Program-made: the position numbers and the translations under genes
Virus record (IMG/VR): IMGVR_UViG_3300011254_000489
Coordinates: 1-64,000 of that record
Direction: 5' to 3' (one strand)
DNA length: 64,000 bases
Source: a virus
Part shown: positions 8,360-54,650 of the stretch, piece after piece
Position numbering within the stretch: position 1 is the first letter of the stretch
Layout of the letters: the number at the start of each line of letters is the position of its first letter
Notes under the pieces: generated by a model
Told to the model about the DNA's origin: nothing
The model's input: only the letters and a program-made list of their open reading frames with translations
Database searches by the model: none

Positions 8360-9538
8360 TTGAGTATTATGTCGCCAATCATTAAGGCGCAACGATTTGA
8401 TGACTTTCAAATAATCAAAAGCGACGAATTAATGATAGGTGGATATGCTTCTATTGAAATGGTAGATAAACAAAATGATTTGATTACCTTAAAATCACTC
8501 AAAGAAGCAGTAAACAAATTTATGGAACAAAAAAACTTCCGAAATGTAATGACAAACCACTCAAATGTCCAAGTAGGAGAAGTAGTAGAAAATTACCGAG
8601 ACTCAAATGGAAGACTATGGAAAACCGAAGTAGATGATGTAGGATTTTTTGTAGTAATTAAATTAAGGGACGACATAGAAAAAGCCAAAGAAATAGGCAG
8701 AGGAATTCGCAAGGGAACATTAAGGTCTTTTAGCATTGGAGGACAAGCATTACAGAAAGTAAAAAAGCGCAGTGAAGAGTTAGGCGAATTTAGTGAAATT
8801 AGCAAACTTGAATTGCACGAAGTAACAATCTGTGAAAAAGGAATAAATCCCGAAGCGAAATTTGACATACTCAAACAAGAGGTGACTAACATGAATAAAT
8901 TAGAAAAAGCATTGGCGGAACTGGACACTCTTCTAGAAGAAGTGAACACTCTGCGTAAAGAAGAAGAAGAAGCCCCCGAAATGGAAAACATGGCGGGAGA
9001 AGAAGAAGAAATGATGGGCGGAGAATATATGGATGATACCCGTAAGTCTCCTACTGCTACGCTTGATGGCGGCTCTGTAGAAACAGGTGAACCTGCTGAA
9101 AGAGTTGTTGTAAGCGGTGGAAAACCAACAGGTTCTTCCCAAGCAGAAGAAGAAGGTAAAGTCTCAAAAGCATTCGGTAACGGAGAATTTGATACTCTAA
9201 ACCTTTCCCCCGAAAACATTGAGAAGGCTTATGCTCAGTTTAGAGCAGAGCAAATGGAAAAACTTGCATACGATAACTTGCAAGATACCTTCGCTAAGAG
9301 ATTTGAGAACGAAGTTTCTCACCGAGAACATTTGGTTGCAAAGTCCGAGTACGATGCACAAGATGAAATCTCTGCTCTACGACAACAATTTAGTGAACTC
9401 CGTAAGTCTTTGGATAACGGAAACGCAGAAATTCGCAAGGCCAATGAAGCCGCACAAGAAGTTAAGGTACTTTCCCTAGAGGAAGTTGCTGAGATGGATT
9501 GGAGCGACATTCACAAGATGGTTAGCGGAAATATTTGA
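8360..9538 (+). CDS. HK97-type prohead protease fused to C-terminal scaffold
   Basis: IGGYAS..MVDKQND, catalytic His (MTNHS), RSFSIGG catalytic Ser, LHEVTIC....NPEA; acidic coiled-coil C-half; directly upstream of MCP. Confidence 0.9.
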   Translation: MSIMSPIIKAQRFDDFQIIKSDELMIGGYASIEMVDKQNDLITLKSLKEAVNKFMEQKNFRNVMTNHSNVQVGEVVENYRDSNGRLWKTEVDDVGFFVVIKLRDDIEKAKEIGRGIRKGTLRSFSIGGQALQKVKKRSEELGEFSEISKLELHEVTICEKGINPEAKFDILKQEVTNMNKLEKALAELDTLLEEVNTLRKEEEEAPEMENMAGEEEEMMGGEYMDDTRKSPTATLDGGSVETGEPAERVVVSGGKPTGSSQAEEEGKVSKAFGNGEFDTLNLSPENIEKAYAQFRAEQMEKLAYDNLQDTFAKRFENEVSHREHLVAKSEYDAQDEISALRQQFSELRKSLDNGNAEIRKANEAAQEVKVLSLEEVAEMDWSDIHKMVSGNI

Positions 9539-9549
9539 GGTGATTTAGC

Positions 9550-10884
9550 ATGACATATATTAACACAATTAGAGATTTAGAGGCGGCAACATACGGAGTA
9601 CCTGCATTTGGAGGAAATTCCCTCCTTAAGCAAGCAGGAGTCGTACAAGGATTACACACGGCACACGATACAGCCGCTACAGGCGCAAGCGGAGTTAGCG
9701 CAATTGGTAGTGCTACAGGAATGTATAATGTACTATACGGACAGAAAGTTTGGTCAATGCTTAACAGAGAAGTTAATGCTTTGGCTATGCTATCAAAGCG
9801 TCCTTACACCTCAAGCGGTTGGAGAATTCTTAAGAGCCGACCCTTCGGTGGTAGTGGTTCTACTCTTACTTTGCAAAGTGACGGTAGCGGTGGCGGAATT
9901 GGTTCCGACGACCCACAAGCAGATGAAATCGGTGGCGTTCCCGAAAATGCAGGACTTTCTACTGCGGCTGACGGTCTAGGAAGCATGGCTCCTACCTACG
10001 CTCAACTCTTTATGAGTCCTAAGACAGTTGCTCACCAATTTGACATATCGGAATTGGCTATGGAAATGGCTCAAATTGACGATGGTTTGGGAGACATTCG
10101 GGCTATTATTCGTGAAGACATGGGTAAGGCACACGCAGAAGCACAAAACAAGATGCTAGTTATGCCTCTTGAATTCTACGGTGAAAACTCTGCTCTTGGA
10201 GACATTGAGCGAAACTATACTTCGCTCCTTAAGATTGTTACTAACAGAACCGAATTACTCGCTCTAGACGGTGGAGTACTTGCTACTGACACTGCTAGTG
10301 CTACTAATAATCTAGGTAAAATTTACGGTGATGAGAGATTCTCTGCCGCTTCTTTCTTAGATGCAGAAGTAGACTTCAACGGTAGTTATGCGGCCTCTTC
10401 GGTTCGCCCACTAACTTTGACTTTGCTTAACGCTATGATTAGAAACTTGCGTGTTGCCGGTGGTTCACCAAAGGTTATCCTAACAGGATACGATACCATC
10501 CAAGCAATTGCTGACTTGCTACAATCCCAAGAGCGATTCATGGACAGAAAGGAAATTATTCCTACTGTCAATGGTGTTCGTGGAATTAAGGGAGCAGAAG
10601 TTGGATTCCGTGTTGCAACATACTACGACATTCCTCTCATCCCTGTTAAGGAAATGACCGGAACCCGTAATGCGGCTGATACAGGAATTAGTGACCTATT
10701 GTTCCTTGATACTGACCATCTATGGCTCTCTGTTATGAAGCCTACTCAGTACTTTGAAGATGGTATCTCCAATGGAAACCCATTCGGTGTCGGTCGTCTA
10801 GGAAACCAAGCCCTTTACCGAACCATCGGTGAAACAGGTTGTTCCTTCTTCCGTGGACAAGGTAAGATTACGAATGTGGCTTGA
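9550..10884 (+). CDS. Major capsid protein (HK97 fold)
   Basis: 444 aa after the protease; strong SD GAGGTGA; GGVPEN, PKVILTG and YYDIPLIP-type segments; ends QGKITNVA. Confidence 0.85.
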   Translation: MTYINTIRDLEAATYGVPAFGGNSLLKQAGVVQGLHTAHDTAATGASGVSAIGSATGMYNVLYGQKVWSMLNREVNALAMLSKRPYTSSGWRILKSRPFGGSGSTLTLQSDGSGGGIGSDDPQADEIGGVPENAGLSTAADGLGSMAPTYAQLFMSPKTVAHQFDISELAMEMAQIDDGLGDIRAIIREDMGKAHAEAQNKMLVMPLEFYGENSALGDIERNYTSLLKIVTNRTELLALDGGVLATDTASATNNLGKIYGDERFSAASFLDAEVDFNGSYAASSVRPLTLTLLNAMIRNLRVAGGSPKVILTGYDTIQAIADLLQSQERFMDRKEIIPTVNGVRGIKGAEVGFRVATYYDIPLIPVKEMTGTRNAADTGISDLLFLDTDHLWLSVMKPTQYFEDGISNGNPFGVGRLGNQALYRTIGETGCSFFRGQGKITNVA

Positions 10885-10895
10885 GGTGATTAAGG

Positions 10896-11174
10896 ATGGC
10901 TTTTACATCTACAATCACAGAAACAAGCGTTTTTGGAAATAAAAGGGTTGCTTACGGAACCTTTACCAACACAAGCGGTTCTACCGGCGGTGACATTGAT
11001 ACGGGATTAAACCGTGTAGATATTATGCACCTACAAACAACGGGTTCACCGGCTCCGGCTAGCAGTAGCCCGTCTATTAACGAAACATTCCCACTTGCTA
11101 GTGCTATCGCATCAGCAGTAACAATAGTTACTGTTGCCGATGCAGTAGGCGTTTGGATTGCTTACGGTGCTTAA
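10896..11174 (+). CDS. Probable capsid decoration/cement protein
   Basis: Small Thr/Ser/Gly-rich beta protein immediately after MCP. Confidence 0.55.
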   Translation: MAFTSTITETSVFGNKRVAYGTFTNTSGSTGGDIDTGLNRVDIMHLQTTGSPAPASSSPSINETFPLASAIASAVTIVTVADAVGVWIAYGA

Positions 11175-11186
11175 GGAGGGTCTTAA

Positions 11187-11525
11187 TTGGCTACTCTCCA
11201 ACTAAGTGAAATTTGTTGGGCTGATTCTCTAAAACTACAAGGAGAAGAAGGAAAATTTGAAGTGACAAAGGCTGAGTCTGTAGAAGTCTCAGCCTTTGTT
11301 GCCTCTCATTATTACGGAGGTAACAATGTTACAGTCACTTTTTCCGAATCCGATAGATTGCAATTAGAATCTTTGCCCGAAAGAGAACTACAAATGTTGT
11401 CTAAAGCACTTGAATGTTCACCTAATGAAGTCGTTGCTGTTCTTCTACCTAAGAAAAAATCTAAGCCTAAGAAAACAACAAGGGCTAAGAAGACTTCTGC
11501 TAAGAAAGAAGAATCTGCTGAATGA
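11187..11525 (+). CDS. Hypothetical protein with Lys-rich tail
   Basis: TTG start after AGGAGG; KKKSKPKKTTRAKK tail. Confidence 0.6.
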   Translation: MATLQLSEICWADSLKLQGEEGKFEVTKAESVEVSAFVASHYYGGNNVTVTFSESDRLQLESLPERELQMLSKALECSPNEVVAVLLPKKKSKPKKTTRAKKTSAKKEESAE

Positions 11526-11576: not shown

Positions 11577-11900
11577 ATGCCCGATGCTTCAAGGTCAAGC
11601 GGTGTTCTCTCCGCAACTACAACAATTTGTAAAAACGCATGTAATTTGAAAAGTATTCATGTTACTTGTACTACAGGTGGTTCCGACGAATACATCTTGA
11701 AGATTTTTGATTCGGGAGATGCTACTCTAACAGGAAACACAGAATTAGCGAGAATGGTTTTTAACGCTCATACTTCTTCTGCTAATATAGAATATGACAT
11801 GCATGGTGTTTTGGCTAGAGAAGGTCTTCATGCGCAATTGACTGCGCCTCCTTCACCTCATAGTGATTCGCAATGTGCTTTCTCAGTGGAGTATAACTGA
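11577..11900 (+). CDS. Small beta-rich virion protein
   Basis: 107-aa beta-strand-rich ORF in structural block. Confidence 0.5.
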   Translation: MPDASRSSGVLSATTTICKNACNLKSIHVTCTTGGSDEYILKIFDSGDATLTGNTELARMVFNAHTSSANIEYDMHGVLAREGLHAQLTAPPSPHSDSQCAFSVEYN

Positions 11901-11909
11901 GGCGATACA

Positions 11910-12311
11910 ATGGCGGCACTAAACACTGACACTAGATTAATCATGACTATTCTTTTCGTTGGAGTAGTTAGTGGTGCAAATGTTTTCTTTTACGCACAAT
12001 ATGGTACTAACTTCCCATATACGCATTTAGCGCATGGGGTTCTATTTGGACTTATTACAGTGGGTGCTATTCTAATTATGAAGGCTCTCAATGATTTATT
12101 TTTAAATGATTACATAGAGCAAGGACTTCTAGATAGAAGAATTGAGGCTTATTGGAAACTAAAAAACAAGGAAGAACAACAAAGGAAGAGAATGCAAGAC
12201 TCTCTAAAAACATTCCAAACCGACTTCAACACTTCTAGAGTACCCGAAATTGCTCCTGCTTACAACGCAGAAGACGGCATAGGAAATGAATTTTTAGCCA
12301 CCTTACAGTGA
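11910..12311 (+). CDS. Membrane protein, 2 TM helices + coiled coil
   Basis: Hydrophobic LIMTILFVGVVSGANVFFY and GVLFGLITVGAILIM; charged C-terminal coil. Confidence 0.75.
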   Translation: MAALNTDTRLIMTILFVGVVSGANVFFYAQYGTNFPYTHLAHGVLFGLITVGAILIMKALNDLFLNDYIEQGLLDRRIEAYWKLKNKEEQQRKRMQDSLKTFQTDFNTSRVPEIAPAYNAEDGIGNEFLATLQ

Positions 12312-12320
12312 GGTGGTTAA

Positions 12321-12539
12321 ATGGTCTTAAGCGACTTAATGGGATTTTCCGACTCCGATTATGCGTACAATCAACAGAGAGCGCATTCTGCTGATATGTT
12401 CTTCATGAGAATGAGAGCATGGTTTTGGGGTTCTTGTGTTGGCTTGTCTTGTTTATTAATAGGAAACATTATGGGTGTTTTTGACATTAATATTATGGGA
12501 TGGTTAATAGATAAAGTAACAGGTATTTGGGGACATTGA
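12321..12539 (+). CDS. Small membrane protein
   Basis: Hydrophobic AWFWGSCVGLSCLLIGNIMGVF plus amphipathic C-terminal helix. Confidence 0.7.
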   Translation: MVLSDLMGFSDSDYAYNQQRAHSADMFFMRMRAWFWGSCVGLSCLLIGNIMGVFDINIMGWLIDKVTGIWGH

Positions 12540-12540
12540 T

Positions 12541-13203
12541 ATGTCGGTAATGACAGGCTTTGCTATTCTTATTGGTGAAGCAATAATAGGTTTTTACAAA
12601 AAAATACATGCAATTAATTTTGGTGTGTATGGGGCAACAATGGTAGGTAAAACTACTTTACATCATCAGTTAAGGACTAGAGGGGAAGTGCCTCAAATAA
12701 AAGAAAGGACTGTAGGGGTGCATAGACCCACTAGAAAAACAGTAAAAATAGACGGTGATGTTCACACACTAAAGACTGCGGATATGGGCGGTGAGTCTAT
12801 CTATTGGCGGCAATGGCTTAATGATATACAGAAGAGAAAGGTAAAATACATTATTTTTCTTATTGACCATAGGCATTTAGATAGTCAAGCAAATTTAGAC
12901 CATCAACTAGCATGGAAGTTTTTAGTAGATGGTATTTGTTCAAGTACTTGGCCTAGTGGTAAAAAGAAAAAAACAGAAGAATATCCTTTGGCGATAGGTC
13001 TTTGGGCTAATAAGTATGATATGTGGGGTAAAAAATACAAACATGGTGGTGATATAGAAGACCATCCTATCTTTGAGCCATTTCATTATGGTATGCAAAA
13101 ACTAAATGAACGAGGGATTCCCACATTTAAATACATAGTATCCGCTAAGTCGCAACCGGAGATGGTTTATCGTGGCGTTACAACAATGATAAAGGATTAT
13201 TGA
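12541..13203 (+). CDS. Ras-superfamily small GTPase, Arf/Sar1-like
   Basis: G1 GATMVGKT, G2 RTVG, G3 DMGG(E), IIFLID, G4 NKYD, G5 SAK; N-terminal hydrophobic/amphipathic helix. Confidence 0.9.
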   Translation: MSVMTGFAILIGEAIIGFYKKIHAINFGVYGATMVGKTTLHHQLRTRGEVPQIKERTVGVHRPTRKTVKIDGDVHTLKTADMGGESIYWRQWLNDIQKRKVKYIIFLIDHRHLDSQANLDHQLAWKFLVDGICSSTWPSGKKKKTEEYPLAIGLWANKYDMWGKKYKHGGDIEDHPIFEPFHYGMQKLNERGIPTFKYIVSAKSQPEMVYRGVTTMIKDY

Positions 13204-13841
13204 TTAATATGTACCAACAACCGAATTTAATAGGAGCGCAATCACCACAAACAGGTAACTTGTTTTTGTCGCCTTTGATGCAAGCAAGAGCAAGTGGCCC
13301 TGTAGAAGAATACAAGTTTAAGAATATTAAACCTAAAAAGAAGTTAAAGGAAATCAAGCAAGTATTAATGGCCGAAAAAAAGAAATTTTTGTTTATTAGA
13401 TATGGCTTTAAATTTAATTTAAAGGAACGGTGTGTTGTTTGCGGAACCCATCAAGTGTGGGAAGCGGGGGACTACATGCGCCCTCCTATTCCTTTAACTC
13501 ATGTAGAAAAGGGTCGGCCCATGAGAGGAACATATTGTTCTAAGCATTCAGCAACACATAAACAAATGGAAATGCTACAACAACAAATACTAGCAGAAGA
13601 ACACGGTCTTGATTTTAAAGCATTTATCCCTAGACCAAGAATGCCCCAAGTTTTATCTAAGGGGCCGCTTACCACACTATCACAGGCAGATGTGGTTTCG
13701 CTAACTTCGGCAGGATGGATACTAAAACCCCCGACTAACAATACCGAAGAAACACCTCCCGAAGAAGTAGTTAGACTATCACAAGAAATGCGTACATCAT
13801 TAGAAAGAATGCAGTTTTTAATAGAAGGAAAAGGTGAATGA
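13200..13841 (+). CDS. Zn-binding hypothetical protein in GTPase cluster
   Basis: CVVC...YCSKH; basic segment; start likely ATG 13209. Confidence 0.65.
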   Translation: MINMYQQPNLIGAQSPQTGNLFLSPLMQARASGPVEEYKFKNIKPKKKLKEIKQVLMAEKKKFLFIRYGFKFNLKERCVVCGTHQVWEAGDYMRPPIPLTHVEKGRPMRGTYCSKHSATHKQMEMLQQQILAEEHGLDFKAFIPRPRMPQVLSKGPLTTLSQADVVSLTSAGWILKPPTNNTEETPPEEVVRLSQEMRTSLERMQFLIEGKGE

Positions 13842-14514
13842 TATGGTATTTGGAACAAGTAATGGAACAGTATTAAGTGCGGTAAACGCTCAAAACGACC
13901 AACAATTCAAGAATGTAAATAATCTACTATCTTTACAAGATAACCATGTGGAAGAATTTTTTCAGTATCACGGAGCGCAATTTTTAGGAGCATTGGAAAA
14001 ATTAATGGAAGATGTTACAGAAAGAGTAGTAAGTCAAATGTTGGCTAAATTAGAATTCGTTCAAGATTCTACTACAGGTAAAACCACCGTTCATCCCGAT
14101 TGTATGAGAGAGTACGAAAAGATTACTGCTGAAAATATTCAATTAGACATTAATGCAATTCTTCACTCTGCGGTTGATACAGAAGTAATCAACCAAAGAA
14201 AGATGGCTAAGAAGCAATATTTAGAATCTCAAGGATTTACTTCCCCCCAACAAGGATACCAACAAGTAGCGGCCCCATCAGCAGGTATGGCGGTAGCAGG
14301 TATTACAGGACAAACTCAACAATATAACCAAATGCAAGGAGCAGTAAGTAATGGTAGTGGCTATCCAATACCACCAAGCGGCACAGATGGATACGGTAGG
14401 CCGTTTTGGGTAGACCCACAAACAGGACAAACTAGTTACGAGCCTCCTAAAAGTGGATTGCATTTAGGCTCCGCTATCCAAAAGGGTGCGGCATGGGCAA
14501 AGTGGTTAATGTGA
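13834..14514 (+). CDS. Helical protein with Gln/Gly/Pro-rich tail and C-terminal amphipathic helix
   Basis: Q-rich low-complexity segment; RPFWVDPQTGQTSYEPP resembles a WW-like motif; ends AIQKGAAWAKWLM. Confidence 0.65.
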   Translation: MNDMVFGTSNGTVLSAVNAQNDQQFKNVNNLLSLQDNHVEEFFQYHGAQFLGALEKLMEDVTERVVSQMLAKLEFVQDSTTGKTTVHPDCMREYEKITAENIQLDINAILHSAVDTEVINQRKMAKKQYLESQGFTSPQQGYQQVAAPSAGMAVAGITGQTQQYNQMQGAVSNGSGYPIPPSGTDGYGRPFWVDPQTGQTSYEPPKSGLHLGSAIQKGAAWAKWLM

Positions 14515-14517
14515 GGA

Positions 14518-15849
14518 TTGACAATGAAATTCATTCCAAAACTTGACATCGCAATTCATTTAAACAATACAGGTCAAGTTTTTGATGTTGTGAAATATGG
14601 CGAATTGTCGCTATTGAAAAAATTGTTTTACGATAATACAGAGGTTTCTTCTGTTCCTTCGGATGAAGAATTGGATGAGAAGATTGAGGATTTAGAAGAT
14701 TTGAATAGGGGTTCGGAATACGAGTTTAATGTTGATGATGCTAAAAAACAATTTAGAGAACAGTTAGTAATTTTAAAAAATAAGACATTTTCGGAGTTAG
14801 ATAAAATAGTACAGATTGACAGAAAGATACCAGTACTTATTGATAAGATGAATTTTACAATTAAAGATATTGCTAATACTGATAAGAGAAATAAATTACT
14901 ATCTATGGGTGAAGAAACTGTTGCATACGAAAGACTAACAACTCCTAGCGAAGAAATATCACTAGATGAGTTAGAAGACGCAATTAAGGAAACAGGCTTT
15001 AACACTCAATTTGATGAATTGTATGATACTGTTTTAGATGACATGGAAGTAGATAACAATACAATATCTTTCAGCGATATACCATTTACAAGAAGAGTAT
15101 TAGAAAGATACAAACCTAGTAAACTATGGATTGATGACTATTTAAATCAACATAAACAATTATCCCCGAATAAATTTGAAGACACAGTAGTTCTTGCTAC
15201 CTTAAAAGTAATCAATGGTAAACTTGTAGTTGAAGGTAATCTAGATGAAGACCAAATTGAGGAATACTTTGATTATGAACAAATAGAAGAGGGCGAAGAA
15301 GAAGTAGTAGCAACACTAAAGGAAAACTTAAACAGAAAAGCATGGGCTGATTTATTTTTAAGTGCTATATTTGACAACCAAAAAAATAATTTCATAGATT
15401 ATCTAACCGATTTTACTAAACTGATGCAGGTTGAATGTACTATTATTCCTAAATCGGATAGAGGACAAATTTTAGCCGATTTAGTATTTACTGAATATGG
15501 TAGAATTAGATTTACTAAGCCTCCTTTGCCTAGACTTGCGGGTGCAACTAAGAAAGACAATTTACTTAAACCTAGAGTATCAACGAATATTCCTTTTCCA
15601 GATTTTCTAGATAAAGACAAAATTAATCTAATACAGTCGGAGGATTGGAAAGATGAATTAAGTGAGGCTGATAGGGTCAAATACCAAGACCTTACTCCCC
15701 AAAAAAAGCAAAAAAAAGAAGAAGACTTGAAAGATAAAATATTCAATCAAAACCAAAGAAAAATTGCAGAAACTAGAGAAAGGGTACTCGCTTTCTTTTA
15801 TGAAATCATTTCTAATCTTAGTGATTTAGAAGACGCATTGGAGGTCTAA
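14518..15849 (+). CDS. Acidic hypothetical protein
   Basis: 443-aa D/E-rich ORF, no recognisable motif. Confidence 0.6.
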   Translation: MTMKFIPKLDIAIHLNNTGQVFDVVKYGELSLLKKLFYDNTEVSSVPSDEELDEKIEDLEDLNRGSEYEFNVDDAKKQFREQLVILKNKTFSELDKIVQIDRKIPVLIDKMNFTIKDIANTDKRNKLLSMGEETVAYERLTTPSEEISLDELEDAIKETGFNTQFDELYDTVLDDMEVDNNTISFSDIPFTRRVLERYKPSKLWIDDYLNQHKQLSPNKFEDTVVLATLKVINGKLVVEGNLDEDQIEEYFDYEQIEEGEEEVVATLKENLNRKAWADLFLSAIFDNQKNNFIDYLTDFTKLMQVECTIIPKSDRGQILADLVFTEYGRIRFTKPPLPRLAGATKKDNLLKPRVSTNIPFPDFLDKDKINLIQSEDWKDELSEADRVKYQDLTPQKKQKKEEDLKDKIFNQNQRKIAETRERVLAFFYEIISNLSDLEDALEV

Positions 15850-17703: not shown

Positions 17704-19314
17704 ATGACCAACAACAATATATTTTTAGGAAGCGGCACATCGGTAACTTTTGTTCCCGAAGTAGATATTTATTTGAAACCTCACCAAACGGCGGGTACGG
17801 CTTTAACCGATACAAACGGCGTACTTCCTTCGGGACAAGGAAATAAATTAACTCTGCATGGTGATTTTACAGGCAATTTTGATTTGGTCAATGACCTTTA
17901 TGTTGGTTGTGTTTTGGAGTTTTATGATGGCGGTACTTTCAGTTCTTCTCATAGAGTAACAACTAATGATGCTACAACCATTACTTTTCACCCTGCTATA
18001 ACTGGCGGTACTTTCGTAACTATTGTTCCTGCTGATGACTTTTTCCGCCTAAAAGGATATGGCGCACCTTGTCCTGCTACTAGTGGTACTTCAAATCTAA
18101 AAAATCTAAATGCTGACAATTGGTTGGGTATTGTAGAGTCCCTAACTTTCCCTTCTGTTGATGTAGAATTTAAACAACAGAATTTGTTTGTGGGTGGAAG
18201 CAGAAACTTTACCCACCAATACAAAGGAATAGAAACGGCAGGTAACGCAAGCATTGGTATTGTTGCTAATCATGGTGCTTGGTTGTACTATTTCTTTGGT
18301 AAGTGTTCTTCTATTAGTGCTACTCTTGCATCGGGTACTAACCCTGCTAGTGACTTCGCAGGTAACACAGGTTCCGAAAATAAATATTATTTGGAAAACA
18401 CTACCCTTACTGACACAGGGCCGTTGTTTTACAGAAGTATAAACAATGTAATGACACCTCCTGTTTTGGAAGGGCAAGATGCCTTCGGAGATTTAGACCA
18501 ATTAACAGAATCTACAGTTGGTGGTGACGGATTTATTGATGACCCTATTACCTACACCTTTGCAGAGCAGGATGGCGATGATTTGCCTTCTTTTGCTATG
18601 GAACAAGTCTTTTCTAAATTACCATCTTCAAACCCTTACAGTACAAGGATTACTCCTAGTGGTGCTGATGAAGATACTAACTTTGTTCTTATTGCTACAG
18701 GCAACAGAGTAAACACTCTTACAATGACTGCTAACGAAAACGAAGAGTTGAAAATGACTATGGATTGTATGCCTCGTAAGGTTCACAGTCTAGAAAAAGA
18801 TGAAAAGTATGCGGCTAGAAGGTCTGTTACTGACGAAACTACTTTCAAGAATTTCTCTTCCGATGATAAACTATTGGAACCTTTCTTCTTTTCAAGTGGT
18901 TCTATTAGTTTATTCGGACAGAACTTTTTGCGAATTACCCAATTCTCCTTAACAATGAACAATACTCTTACTGATAAGAGATTTATTGGTATTGGTAGTA
19001 GGAATGTTAAGGATGCTATTCCTGCACAAAGAACCTACGAATTGACATTTAGTGCTTTAGTTACTGATGATAAATTATTCAATGAGTTGAAAAACAACGA
19101 TGAAAACCAATTGGCTGATAGTGGAGCCTTGATTGATTTAATCTTTGATAAACCAAACCAAGAACAAATCCGTTTGAAGTTTGATAACTATTATTTGACT
19201 ACAAACTCTTGGCCTATTCCCGAAGACAAGGGAGCAGTAACCGTAGATGCTACAATCATCCCACGCTCCCTAAGCAGTTGCACCGTCAAAACCCATTGGG
19301 TCTTGCAGGGGTGA
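17704..19314 (+). CDS. Major tail tube protein with inserted domains
   Basis: DLPSFAMEQ..., RVNTLTMTA, FSLTMNNTL, RTYELTF segments typical of archaeal siphovirus tail tubes; precedes chaperones and TMP. Confidence 0.75.
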   Translation: MTNNNIFLGSGTSVTFVPEVDIYLKPHQTAGTALTDTNGVLPSGQGNKLTLHGDFTGNFDLVNDLYVGCVLEFYDGGTFSSSHRVTTNDATTITFHPAITGGTFVTIVPADDFFRLKGYGAPCPATSGTSNLKNLNADNWLGIVESLTFPSVDVEFKQQNLFVGGSRNFTHQYKGIETAGNASIGIVANHGAWLYYFFGKCSSISATLASGTNPASDFAGNTGSENKYYLENTTLTDTGPLFYRSINNVMTPPVLEGQDAFGDLDQLTESTVGGDGFIDDPITYTFAEQDGDDLPSFAMEQVFSKLPSSNPYSTRITPSGADEDTNFVLIATGNRVNTLTMTANENEELKMTMDCMPRKVHSLEKDEKYAARRSVTDETTFKNFSSDDKLLEPFFFSSGSISLFGQNFLRITQFSLTMNNTLTDKRFIGIGSRNVKDAIPAQRTYELTFSALVTDDKLFNELKNNDENQLADSGALIDLIFDKPNQEQIRLKFDNYYLTTNSWPIPEDKGAVTVDATIIPRSLSSCTVKTHWVLQG

Positions 19315-46801: not shown

Positions 46802-47713
46802 CTATATTAGTTGGCCTACCATCCATGAAGCAAGCAATTTCGGGGTCATGGTGGTAGAACGCCACTCCCCTTCTCCAATTACTCGCAGGAATTTCAATTT
46901 CATTTTAGCCTCCATATCACACTTGATTGTGTAATCGTGGAGTCCAATACAGATTTCCTTTACGGAACGACCTGCGTAAATAGACTGATGAATTTTTTCA
47001 AGTGAACCATTAGCATTTCTATTTACAATTTCATTTATTATTTCTTCGTACTCTTCTAGACCTTTTTCAATTTGTCTCGTTAGTGTTGTACCCGACACGA
47101 TACCGGCCTGTAACTCGGTAAGTGTTCTACGCAAATCACCATGAAGAGAGTATATGAAGGTTCCCAAATCCTCATCCGTTAAGTGAGTATGTGCTTCCTT
47201 CTTCAAAATCATTTTCGTGATTCTCAATACCAAATCATATGGTAAAGGCTTGAATCGGTAGTTTGCACATCTACTTTGAAGTGCGTGAATGATTTTGTTT
47301 TTATCATTGCAAGTAATAATAAATCTAACATTGTTAGAGTATCTTTCCATGATTCTCTTCAATGCGTTTTGAGCATCATTGGTCATCCCATCCATCTCAT
47401 CTAACAAGATGATGCGAAAGGGAACAGTACCAATAGTACCGCTTTGTGCGATTTCTTTAATCCTTGTTCTAACTGTTTCTAGTCTTCTGTCATCGGAGGC
47501 ATTTATTTCAAAGAAGTTTTCTTTGACATGAATACCTAGAATAGCATTAGCAAGAACAAAGGCTACACTAGTTTTACCTGTACCCGATGAACCATAAAGT
47601 AGAACATTGGGCATTACTTGTTCTTTAGCCCAAGACTCTGCATCCATTACAAAGTGTTCTTGTCCTACAATTTCACTTAGTTTAGTTGGTCTGTATTTCT
47701 CTGTCCATAACAT
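46802..47713 (-). CDS. rfcS: Replication factor C small subunit (clamp loader)
   Basis: WTEKYRP, GSSGTGKT, EINASDDR, LDEMD, ALQSRC, GDLR. Confidence 0.95.
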   Translation of the reverse strand: MLWTEKYRPTKLSEIVGQEHFVMDAESWAKEQVMPNVLLYGSSGTGKTSVAFVLANAILGIHVKENFFEINASDDRRLETVRTRIKEIAQSGTIGTVPFRIILLDEMDGMTNDAQNALKRIMERYSNNVRFIITCNDKNKIIHALQSRCANYRFKPLPYDLVLRITKMILKKEAHTHLTDEDLGTFIYSLHGDLRRTLTELQAGIVSGTTLTRQIEKGLEEYEEIINEIVNRNANGSLEKIHQSIYAGRSVKEICIGLHDYTIKCDMEAKMKLKFLRVIGEGEWRSTTMTPKLLASWMVGQLI

Positions 47714-53132: not shown

Positions 53133-54650
53133 CTATTCCTCTTTAAGTACTGCGACTTCTGTAGATAAGAACATTAGAGCGATTGACATAGCGGCGGATA
53201 GACTGCTCTTAGTTACTTTAACAGGGTCAATGACTCCTTCTTCCCAAAGGTTTTCTACTTCTCCTGTTTTTGCATTGTAGCCTATTAGGTCACTAGGTTT
53301 GATATTGTCCCAAACTTCTTCGCTAGCATCTCCGTTCTGTAATAGAACACTAATTGGAGTCATAAAAACATCAGCAAGATATGGTAGATTAGGAATATCA
53401 ATTTCTTTCTTCATTTCTTGGAAGGCCAATAACAAACCTAGACCTCCGCCAACAATAACTCCTTCTTGTAGTGCGGCCTTCGTAGCGTTTAGAGCGTCAT
53501 CAAGCCTTTCTTTGGTTTCTCTTAATTCAACACTAGAACCGCCACCTACAGTTATTACTGCAATGCCTCCCTTTAATCTAGAAATTCTAGTGGTGAGTCT
53601 TTCCCTAATCCAATCATTGTTAGCAACCTTGTATAATTCAGTTAGTGCTTCTACTCTTTCTTGGGGATTTCCAATACCGCCTATGATTGTTGAATCAACT
53701 TGGTTCAATATGACCTTATCACATTCGCCAAAGGAAGACTCATCAACAATTCGCAAATCATCCTTTGCTTCATCGGAGAATAATTTCCCCCCTACGACAG
53801 AAATAATATCTTTCAATTCATCTAGTCTAGCATCACCATGATTAGGGGCTTGTGTTACACCAATCTGTATTCTTCCTTGAACAACATTCGCTAATACATT
53901 AGATAGAGCAGAACCTCTTAAGTCTCCACAAATCAAATATAATGGGCGACTCTTAGAAGAAGCATACTCTAGCGCAGGAAGAATATCACTAAAGTTAATG
54001 ATTGTCTTATTAGTACAGAACACTAGGGGCTTCTCTAGAATACATTCGCCACTATCTTGATTAGCAAATAAGTGACTAGCATATCCATTATCTAACTCTA
54101 GACCTTCTTTTAATTCAAAATCTGTGCTTAGGCCATGTCCTTCTTCAACAGAAATAACTCCGTCTTTACCTACATGGGAAAATACTTCCGCAATCAATTC
54201 TCCCAAAACAGGGTCATTGTTAGCGGCAATTGTAGCAACATCTAGAATAGAATCATCGGTTACTGGTTCAGCCAAGTTATCTAGGTACAACATCATTTCA
54301 TCCCTAACATACTCTAAATTATTTCTAATAGAATGTAGGTTGTTTAAGGGCATAGCCATGATAGAATTACAAAGAGACTGTGCTAAAACACAGGCCGTTG
54401 TTGTTCCATCACCTGCCTTAGATTGTGCTTTGAATGCTAGATTCTGTACCAATTGGATTCCCATTTGAACATAAGGGTCTTCGTGACTAACATATTTAGC
54501 AATTGTTACACCATCATTGATGACAACAGGCGGAGTACCCTGTAGGATAGCAGTACGGGCTTGTGGGCCTAGTGTTGGTCTAACAGTGTCAGCAACCAAA
54601 TTGATGCCCTGTAGAATTTTTTCCTTTACTTCATTACCAAATAGAATCAT
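53133..54650 (-). CDS. groEL: Group I chaperonin GroEL-like
   Basis: TLGP, NDGVTIA, AGDGTTTA, ATIAAN, LDDALNATKAA, GGG, GVIDPVKV; apical domain is group I-like. Confidence 0.92.
   Translation of the reverse strand: MILFGNEVKEKILQGINLVADTVRPTLGPQARTAILQGTPPVVINDGVTIAKYVSHEDPYVQMGIQLVQNLAFKAQSKAGDGTTTACVLAQSLCNSIMAMPLNNLHSIRNNLEYVRDEMMLYLDNLAEPVTDDSILDVATIAANNDPVLGELIAEVFSHVGKDGVISVEEGHGLSTDFELKEGLELDNGYASHLFANQDSGECILEKPLVFCTNKTIINFSDILPALEYASSKSRPLYLICGDLRGSALSNVLANVVQGRIQIGVTQAPNHGDARLDELKDIISVVGGKLFSDEAKDDLRIVDESSFGECDKVILNQVDSTIIGGIGNPQERVEALTELYKVANNDWIRERLTTRISRLKGGIAVITVGGGSSVELRETKERLDDALNATKAALQEGVIVGGGLGLLLAFQEMKKEIDIPNLPYLADVFMTPISVLLQNGDASEEVWDNIKPSDLIGYNAKTGEVENLWEEGVIDPVKVTKSSLSAAMSIALMFLSTEVAVLKEE

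Follow-up and report, generated by a model that had tools for sequence, protein, structure and literature searches.

Introduction

What would a tailed virus of archaea do with a small GTPase of Arf/Sar1 character whose gene lies directly behind two genes for predicted membrane proteins? This question is raised by a stretch of viral DNA of 64,000 nucleotides (nt), hereafter referred to as the window, which is made up of positions 1 to 64,000 (that is, the first 64 kb) of the IMG/VR virus record IMGVR_UViG_3300011254_000489, an 87-kb record that is rated complete. The locus consists of five consecutive open reading frames (ORFs) on the plus strand, from 11910 to 14514. The initial annotation had proposed that these genes constitute a GTPase-controlled membrane-remodelling module, which would serve either egress and lysis or membrane-associated assembly in an archaeal tailed virus. 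Here we report that the unit is an autonomous cassette of five genes (six in some lineages) of the magroviruses, which are tailed viruses of Poseidoniales, and their kin, and that its GTPase is placed as a new virus-specific family within the clade formed by Arf, Sar1, SRbeta, and G-alpha, without being a member of the Arf family proper. With regard to function, we assign a rough probability of 0.4 to the reading, derived from the sequences, that a membrane-seated GTPase in its GTP-bound form would organize the other four proteins to deform or open the host membrane for virion release.

Layout of the Cassette

The cassette measures 2.6 kb and encodes the following proteins, with lengths in amino acids (aa), the first two being predicted transmembrane (TM) proteins:

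11910-12311, plus strand: TM1, 133 aa (ORF list, hydrophobicity scan)
12321-12539, plus strand: TM2, 72 aa (ORF list, hydrophobicity scan)
12541-13203, plus strand: small GTPase, 220 aa (motifs, fold model, profiles)
13200-13841, plus strand: Cys/His protein, probably Zn-binding, 213 aa (conserved Cys/His)
13834-14514, plus strand: protein rich in Gln, Gly, and Pro (Q/G/P-rich), 226 aa (composition, profiles)

The tight packing that had been described for these genes agrees exactly with the ORF list, the intergenic gaps being 9, 1, -4, and -8 nt. The true start of the Cys/His protein is likely to be the ATG at 13209, judging by its residue M4, which is conserved at 95% or more, and that of the fifth protein is likely to be the ATG at 13843. 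Since the spacers, which are at most 9 nt throughout 11900-14518, leave no space for a separate promoter, the cassette is likely to be co-transcribed with the late structural genes, and thus expressed late, in the window virus.

Conservation of the Five-Gene Unit

The group of loci closest to the window (group W) comprises 80 viral contigs with a GTPase 73-98% identical to that of the window, and within it genes were counted only where the region concerned is present. The neighbours of the GTPase gene are kept throughout these close loci, with TM1 present in 77/77, TM2 in 78/78, the Cys/His protein in 71/72, and the Q/G/P-rich protein in 67/67, whereas the genes flanking the cassette in the same operon turn over fast, those starting at 10896, 11187, and 14518 being retained in 23/74, 36/74, and 8/60 loci, respectively.

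The same succession of genes recurs in a second group (group X), which consists of 80 contigs found with P0139 and has a GTPase about 30% identical to that of the window. Its gene order is a protein with two TM helices and a charged tail, a small protein with one TM helix, the GTPase, a Cys protein of approximately 300 aa, a Q/G-rich protein of approximately 210 aa, and a small protein with two TM helices, and an ORF of narrow size range lies at each position in 69-71 of the 71 loci with an identified GTPase ORF. Profile-profile comparison of groups W and X with hhalign, in which the genes were assigned by homology, gave the following matches:

GTPase: 100%, E 1e-38
Cys/His protein: 97.6%, E 2.8e-12
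Q/G/P-rich protein: 91.4%, E 9e-7
TM1: 14.6%, E 1.8e-3
TM2: 2.7%, E 0.017

A third group (group Y), of which four contigs were found and three examined, has the same order in 3/3. Its TM proteins match the group X profiles (7e-12 to 6e-8), its Cys/His protein matches the profiles of both W and X, and its Q/G/P-rich protein matches both in one locus; cross-matches of the hidden Markov model of the fifth protein were found in L165, L166, and L170. Seven further loci came from GTDB genomes, and the six of these that lie on virus-like contigs, either in metagenome-assembled genomes (MAGs) or in a Poseidoniales single-cell genome, all carry the full cassette (6/6). The seventh codes for a 1105-aa bacterial multidomain protein with no cassette around it. 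Related-locus searches with P0132, P0178, and P0135 returned no viral contigs, and a single-protein scan of genome contigs found nothing.

The four neighbours are therefore kept in the close loci and recur in the same order in two further groups whose GTPases share about 30% identity, and because the neighbours are co-conserved, the five-gene module stands. Its position is another matter. The initial annotation had set the genes inside the virion morphogenesis block, and this is true of the window lineage but is not a general trait: in the group X records with a match to the capsid protein (42-47% identity to that of the window), the cassette shares the strand of the capsid gene but is separated from it by 20-23 kb in 3/3, and the genes around the group X and Y cassettes share almost nothing with the structural genes of the window. 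The cassette is thus autonomous, and its placement between the capsid and the tail-side genes is lineage-specific.

Several observations accompany these counts. In group X (L082-L161) the sixth gene encodes a small protein of about 80 aa with two TM helices, after which comes a gene for a conserved protein of approximately 236 aa that has two CxxC motifs and a weak match to an ArsR-type helix-turn-helix. The GTPase domain of the 1105-aa protein (L172:3479-6796, on a 583-kb contig of a Saprospiraceae MAG) is weakly matched by the viral profile (E 7e-5). The cassette contigs L166-L168 and L170 are found in MAGs of Maricaulis sp. and Parvibaculum sp. by which GTDB represents species, and their alphaproteobacterial assignment is probably a binning error.

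The junction of the GTPase and Cys/His genes (window 13200-13210) is a hot spot of insertion, with one to three mutually unrelated genes inserted there in 33/72 close loci, and 37/40 of the inserted ORFs start with MWxx[ILVM][ILVM]K. Loci with inserts after the GTPase gene include:

L002, L007, L010, L016, L019-L023, L027, L038, L040-L042, L048, L053
L055, L062, L064, L067, L070, L071, L073, L079

Family Placement of the GTPase

The AlphaFold2 model of the GTPase (predicted local distance difference test, pLDDT, 89.9) has a Ras-like fold. When it was re-aligned to the 1000 best PDB chains from Foldseek, every chain reached a Z score of at least 8, and the top 50 (Z 16.8-18.8) were small GTPases, G-alpha, or their complexes. 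Entries of Arf and Arl occupy ranks 1-35 (Z 18.8-17.5), two of these being chains in complexes whose titles leave the chain unnamed, and the best match is ARF6-GTP (2a5f_A, Z 18.8, root-mean-square deviation (rmsd) 2.4, 161 residues aligned). Below rank 35 follow a Loki Rag-like GTPase and HodArfR1 (both 17.4), G-alpha (about 17.1), and a mimivirus Rab (16.8). A second, Foldseek-independent search of 48,161 representative PDB chains gave Arf6 (18.3), SRbeta (2fh5_B, 17.5), Sar1 (17.5), and G-alpha-s (17.1), with Rab at 16.1-16.8 and Ras, Rho, and Rheb at 14.6-15.5, so that Arf6, SRbeta, and Sar1 lie within one Z unit of each other. The single model appears to resemble the GTP-bound forms.

Sequence comparison leads to the same neighbourhood. 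A profile built from the viral proteins only has 12 PDB sequence matches at E<=1e-3. RecA concatemers and one CFAP protein account for four of these, which are artefacts of the Walker-A motif and were set aside. Among the true GTPases 8oun_A ranks first (E 7.5e-6), ahead of Arl8-type proteins and Rab33B (3-6e-4). According to passages of the preprint that describes it, the entry 8OUN holds GerdArfR1 in full length, a GTPase of Asgard archaea that is related to Arf (bioRxiv 10.1101/2024.02.28.582541), and the alignment to it matches the helix preceding G1, G1 itself, and W92 with the Trp of switch II. The language-model neighbours of the protein are 14 viral clusters and then bacterial and Asgard G-domain families, among which the commonest Pfam label is Arf.

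Family models are less accommodating. Pfam Arf (PF00025) does not match the window GTPase even at E<=1; the sub-threshold Pfam matches are MMR_HSR1, Roc, SRPRB, and Ras (16-18 bits), the NCBIfam search gave only a sub-threshold small_GTP match, and phmmer against the PDB gave no match at E<=10. Among the remote relatives, three that lie on short contigs score above the Pfam Arf cut-off (27-57 bits), but such a pass is unspecific and says little, because PF00025 passes its cut-off in 13/14 control genomes. The most Arf-like of the remote relatives, P0160, was considered as a bridge to named families and ruled out, since the 5.8-billion set contains nothing related to it. When 1.84 billion cluster representatives were searched exhaustively with HMMER, 60 proteins matched at E<=1e-3, many being fragments, and in the sets searched the GTPase is an isolated, virus-restricted family.

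Because of the fold matches, the best PDB sequence match to GerdArfR1, and the language-model neighbours, the GTPase is placed in the Arf/Sar1/SRbeta/G-alpha clade as a new virus-specific family. The Arf/Sar1-like character that had been recognized at the outset is borne out by these three lines, but strict membership in Arf, in view of the missing Pfam match, is not. The likeness to the Arf family lies in the fold, whose closest superpositions are with ARF6, ARL1, and ARL3 in their GTP-bound forms (Z 18.8-17.5, rmsd ~2.5, ~161 residues), in the pre-G1 helix, in the GKTT of G1, and in the DxGG-x6-W of switch II, whereas the viral protein differs in having a Glu for the catalytic Gln, a SAK G5, a GKKKK loop, approximately 37 residues of inserts in all, and an N-terminal helix that is hydrophobic and apparently not amphipathic, as well as in being virus-encoded, without a cellular orthologue in the sets searched.

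Sequence Motifs and the N-Terminal Helix

Every motif string originally quoted for the GTPase is present in the ORF translation, and G1-G5 are intact: GATMVGKTT (G1), RTVG at 57-60 with the switch I Thr as Thr58, DMGGE at 81-85, YWRQW at 88-92, IIFLID at 104-109, ANKYD at 156-160 (G4 NKYD), and SAK at 201-203 (G5); a Lys-rich insert, GKKKK, stands at 139-143, ahead of beta5. In an alignment of 31 viral family members, 29-83% identical to the window protein, G31, G36, K37, and T39 of G1, D81 and G84 of G3, W92, D109, and N157, K158, and D160 of G4 are invariant, and A202 of G5 is nearly so. The sequence hallmarks of the Ras superfamily, namely GxxxxGK[ST] in G1, DxxG in G3, NKxD in G4, and SAx in G5, are all conserved. 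Such a pattern of conservation in sequence is not chance, and the GTPase looks functional and Arf-like. One of the features listed as Arf-type has to be withdrawn, as SAK is a G5 of the Ras/Rab type and not of the Arf type.

In the AlphaFold2 model a helix at residues 3-22 precedes the G domain. The first annotation had called this helix hydrophobic or amphipathic, of which the former fits better: residues 1-18 have a mean hydrophobicity of 0.72 and resemble the TM helices of TM1, but their hydrophobic moment of 0.20 does not speak for an amphipathic character. Passages of the preprint cited above (bioRxiv 10.1101/2024.02.28.582541) give an amphipathic N-terminal helix as a defining trait of the Arf family. 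Because of the hydrophobic N-terminal helix and the two genes for predicted membrane proteins upstream, and with the sixth gene of group X encoding a protein with two TM helices, membrane association of the GTPase is likely.

The Membrane Proteins and the Soluble Partners

The two genes ahead of the GTPase had been taken for genes of TM proteins, and a Kyte-Doolittle scan does find hydrophobic helices in both products. TM1 has two, at 10-28 and 39-57, and a C-terminal tail rich in Lys, Arg, Glu, and Gln, while TM2 has one at 35-53 (about 33-53) and a Trp-rich C-terminal end. The architecture of TM1 may be termed holin-like, as it is small and has at least one TM helix and a charged C-terminal tail. 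It has no family in Pfam, PHROGs, or PADLOC. A positional counterpart of TM1 of the same build occurs in groups X and Y, as does one of TM2, of 73-99 aa.

In the Cys/His protein the residues concerned are C78-x2-C81...C113-x2-H116 (numbering of the full ORF), and its conserved core reads C78xxC81 ... V-x-K-G-R-x-M-x-G-T-Y-C113-P/S-x-H116. Across 37 sequences of two virus groups, C78, G82, G105, T111, C113, and H116 are invariant, but C81 is not, so that the description of a Zn-binding protein after the GTPase is sustained in its conserved core and qualified in this one position; from its sequence the protein is a probable Zn binder. It belongs to no Pfam, NCBIfam, or PHROG family, its AlphaFold2 model is poor (pLDDT 57.9), and complex prediction of the GTPase with it gave a score of 0.00, which counts neither for nor against binding.

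The fifth protein begins with a helical domain (about 25-135) that is conserved, continues with a linker rich in Gln, Gly, and Pro and a WW-like stretch at 184-205, and closes with a conserved, mildly amphipathic tail, the last residues of which are AAWAKWLM; Gln, Gly, and Pro make up 24% of the whole and 45% of residues 133-205. The composition and the amphipathic end reported earlier can thus be upheld. The WW-like segment is degenerate, with a match of 19.4 bits against a cut-off of 26.9 (E 1.1e-3) that covers model positions 10-31 only, and it is absent from the group X homologues. Membership in the WW domain family was accordingly rejected. The ESM Atlas has no usable match for this protein.

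For the four neighbours of the GTPase there is no described family in Pfam, NCBIfam, PHROGs, or PADLOC. PADLOC has no family for any of the five cassette proteins, and a role as a defence system was considered and found nothing in its support.

Comparison with ArvABC and with Holin Cassettes

The closest precedent in kind comes from Haloferax, in which, according to passages of PMC10927574, vesicles form with the participation of the small GTPase ArvA, of ArvB (DUF2073), and of ArvC (DUF2072), a Zn-ribbon protein. With a Zn-ribbon protein encoded in the operon of ArvA, this system is a precedent for GTPase-driven vesiculation (PMC10927574). Both systems have a small GTPase of the archaeal world with an N-terminal helix, an operon with a Zn-binding protein (a probable one in the virus), and a proposed action on membranes; what the viral cassette has beyond ArvABC is a Q/G/P-rich protein and a set of two or three TM proteins. 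ArvB (PF09846/OapB) is not encoded in any of the six frames of the whole 87-kb genome according to a search that detected it in the controls Haloferax and Methanosarcina, and ArvC (PF09845/OapC) has no match in the virus genome at E<=1; an unrelated Cys/His protein occupies the position downstream of the viral GTPase. Comparison of the viral profile with five ArvA homologues, which were picked out of the wider phylum as neighbours of ArvB genes, gave an hhalign match of 95.3% (E 2.1e-8) over 38 columns only, from G1 to switch I. The ArvA homologues have DTPG at G3, and their best PDB matches are EngA, Era, and TrmE. Descent of the viral GTPase from ArvA was rejected on these grounds, namely that the similarity ends after switch I and that the G3 and the PDB matches of ArvA differ. 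As ArvB and ArvC are absent and the likeness to ArvA is confined to the stretch from G1 to switch I, the viral cassette is analogous to ArvABC and not homologous to it as a system.

ArvB was found in 33/61 genomes sampled from the phylum and in 0/61 sampled from the order that holds the Poseidoniales single-cell genome, and the viral GTPase profile matches 1/151 genomes of this host order, the match being the viral contig itself. Within the genomes sampled, the host order thus appears to be without the ArvB marker and without a cellular relative of the viral GTPase.

The cassette also recalls the holin cassettes of phages, with which it shares small membrane proteins, one having two TM helices and a charged C-terminal tail, and a tight packing in what is probably a late operon. 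It differs from them in having no holin-family match and no endolysin, and in including a GTPase and two further soluble proteins.

Proposed Role and Alternative Explanations

The anatomy described above suggests the following course of events, to which the rough probability given at the outset applies. A GTP-binding switch of the Arf/Sar1/SRbeta clade would be held on the cytoplasmic membrane of the host by its hydrophobic N-terminal helix. It would be produced alongside two small integral membrane proteins, of which one is holin-like in build, and two soluble partners, a putative Zn-binding protein and a Q/G/P-rich protein whose C-terminal tail may be membrane-seeking. Once bound to GTP, the switch would recruit or arrange the other four proteins at the membrane, and the assembly would then deform or breach it, allowing a timed release of virions from a host without a murein wall. 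The co-conserved unit gives the GTPase-controlled five-gene module of the initial annotation firm ground as a unit, while membrane localization, contacts between the proteins, dependence on GTP, and the role in egress are what we infer from this anatomy.

A number of points weigh against this proposal. To our knowledge, no lysis system of a tailed virus uses a GTPase. Neither TM1 nor TM2 has a match among the holin families of Pfam and PHROGs (E<=1), and other small hydrophobic ORFs in the genome could be the lysis proteins instead. As their W-X matches are not significant, TM1 and TM2 are positional analogues across the groups and at most putative homologues. The catalytic Gln position, which is Glu85 in the window GTPase, holds E, Q, H, A, or D among its relatives, and hydrolysis of GTP may therefore be slow or absent; the failure of PF00025 to match belongs here as well. 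Since 33/72 loci carry inserts between them, tight translational coupling of the GTPase and Cys/His genes is not required. Sequencing runs are too sparse to bear on expression either way: small shares of the stretch (0.05-0.11) were present in one run of RNA and in two that are presumed to be RNA, the contigs from them being short and mostly of the capsid gene; only two 150-nt pieces fall within the cassette, at 13061-13357, and they come from a run that is possibly DNA.

The alternative that survives best, although we consider it unlikely, is that the cassette takes over the host membrane through an SRbeta-like or polarity switch, which would re-route the targeting of membrane proteins, block superinfection, or alter the physiology of the host envelope. 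SRbeta is anchored by an N-terminal TM helix, and the N-terminal segment of the viral GTPase is anchor-like and apparently not amphipathic. SRbeta belongs to the same clade as Arf, and its fold match (2fh5_B, Z 17.5, rmsd 2.5, 166 aligned) is level with that of Sar1 and just under that of Arf6. SRPRB is among the four weak Pfam matches (E 0.0064), but its 16.3 bits lie under the 25-bit cut-off, which leaves membership in SRbeta unsupported, and no SRalpha-like partner was detected in the Pfam and NCBIfam scans, nor was a longin-like one detected. The group X and Y cassettes lie among accessory-type genes, with little in common with the structural genes of the window, as would suit a takeover of this kind, whereas the window lineage has it within the late structural operon; the viral gene context sets it apart from SRbeta, and no PADLOC defence family is found in it.

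Somewhat less probable still is a membrane-associated assembly factor by which DNA packaging, or the assembly of procapsids or tails, is tied to the membrane, or a set of virion components used at entry. Such a role would fit the position of the cassette behind the capsid gene within the structural operon, which is found in the window virus and in 71/71 close loci, and the conservation of the GTPase, which is about that of the capsid protein (median identity 75% against 80%, the former over the 80 close loci). It fits poorly with the distance of 20-23 kb between capsid gene and cassette in 3/3 group X records with a capsid match. Moreover, tblastn found no relative in 50,697 phage records, among which archaeal tailed viruses are possibly not included, and most tailed viruses thus assemble without the cassette.

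That there is no functional module at all, the GTPase being a decayed pseudo-enzyme and its neighbours unrelated small genes that travel by linkage, we regard as very improbable: the variable catalytic Gln position, the insertion of unrelated genes, and the lack of significant homology of TM1 and TM2 between groups could be read in this way, but every nucleotide-binding motif stays invariant although overall identity is down to about 30%, the three groups share one gene order in spite of completely different flanks, and the flanking genes of the same operon turn over (8/60, 23/74) where the cassette genes do not.

Release of virions by a membrane-seated GTPase therewith remains our preferred reading. 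In a more elaborate form, the cassette would be a magrovirus machine for vesicle budding or scission, in which the GTPase nucleates a coat-like assembly of the Cys/His and Q/G/P-rich proteins on membrane patches marked by the TM proteins and so drives budding, vesiculation, or controlled rupture of the host membrane; we hold this form to be doubtful, about on a par with the assembly factor.

Genome Context and Host

The homologues of the GTPase lie on marine contigs of 80-105 kb, and one of them carries the name Poseidoniales virus YSH_150918 gp088; the element is therefore a magrovirus. The following genes of the window lie outside the cassette:

8360-9538: prohead protease, caudoviral, upstream of the cassette (Pfam/PHROGs)
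9550-10884: major capsid protein, upstream of the cassette (Pfam/PHROGs)
17704-19314: tail tube gene, downstream of the cassette
46802-47713, minus strand: RFC-like clamp loader
53133-54650, minus strand: group II chaperonin-like gene (Cpn60_TCP1, E 1.9e-38)

The gp088 homologue, the caudoviral protease, capsid, and tail tube genes, and the chaperonin and RFC genes together support the archaeal tailed virus that had been surmised. In group Y loci a relative of the window chaperonin sits just upstream of the cassette. A group X cassette was found on a contig of 106,262 bases (L171) in a single-cell genome titled Candidatus Poseidoniales archaeon, and this virus-sized contig inside a Poseidoniales single-cell assembly is a direct link between virus and host for group X.

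The surroundings of the cassette are changeable. The two small genes after the capsid gene (10896-11525) are variable, with the 23/74 and 36/74 close loci given above, and one metagenomic contig has 381 other letters in place of 10888-11187. Directly after the cassette, an acidic protein of 443 aa (14518-15849) is hypervariable, with a tblastn match in 8/60 close loci.

According to passages of PMC5434244, magroviruses are the third most abundant group of marine viruses, behind the phages of SAR11 and the cyanophages.

Significance

The term GTPase does not occur in the main texts of PMC5434244, PMC10160649, PMC11706807, and PMC8651126, although their supplementary gene tables may list one, and literature searches found no description of a magrovirus GTPase or of the cassette in titles, abstracts, and passages. 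The automatic JGI name 'GTPase SAR1 family protein' is already attached to some homologues. We rate the finding as one in which a membrane system controlled by a small GTPase is known in kind, while its encoding by a virus and its partners are new.

Membrane-anchored switches of this kind serve eukaryotic cells in the budding of vesicles. The family extends the range of Arf-like GTPases to archaeal viruses and bears on the origin and spread of GTPase systems for membrane remodelling. If the cassette did bud or rupture membranes by means of a coat-like assembly, it would be the prokaryotic-virus analogue of the COPII and Arf coats and the first mechanism known by which tailed viruses of archaea are released. 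We know of no established route by which tailed viruses leave archaea that lack murein, and a conserved, virus-restricted unit of the Arf/Sar1 type that appears to be directed at the membrane is a concrete candidate for this exit step.

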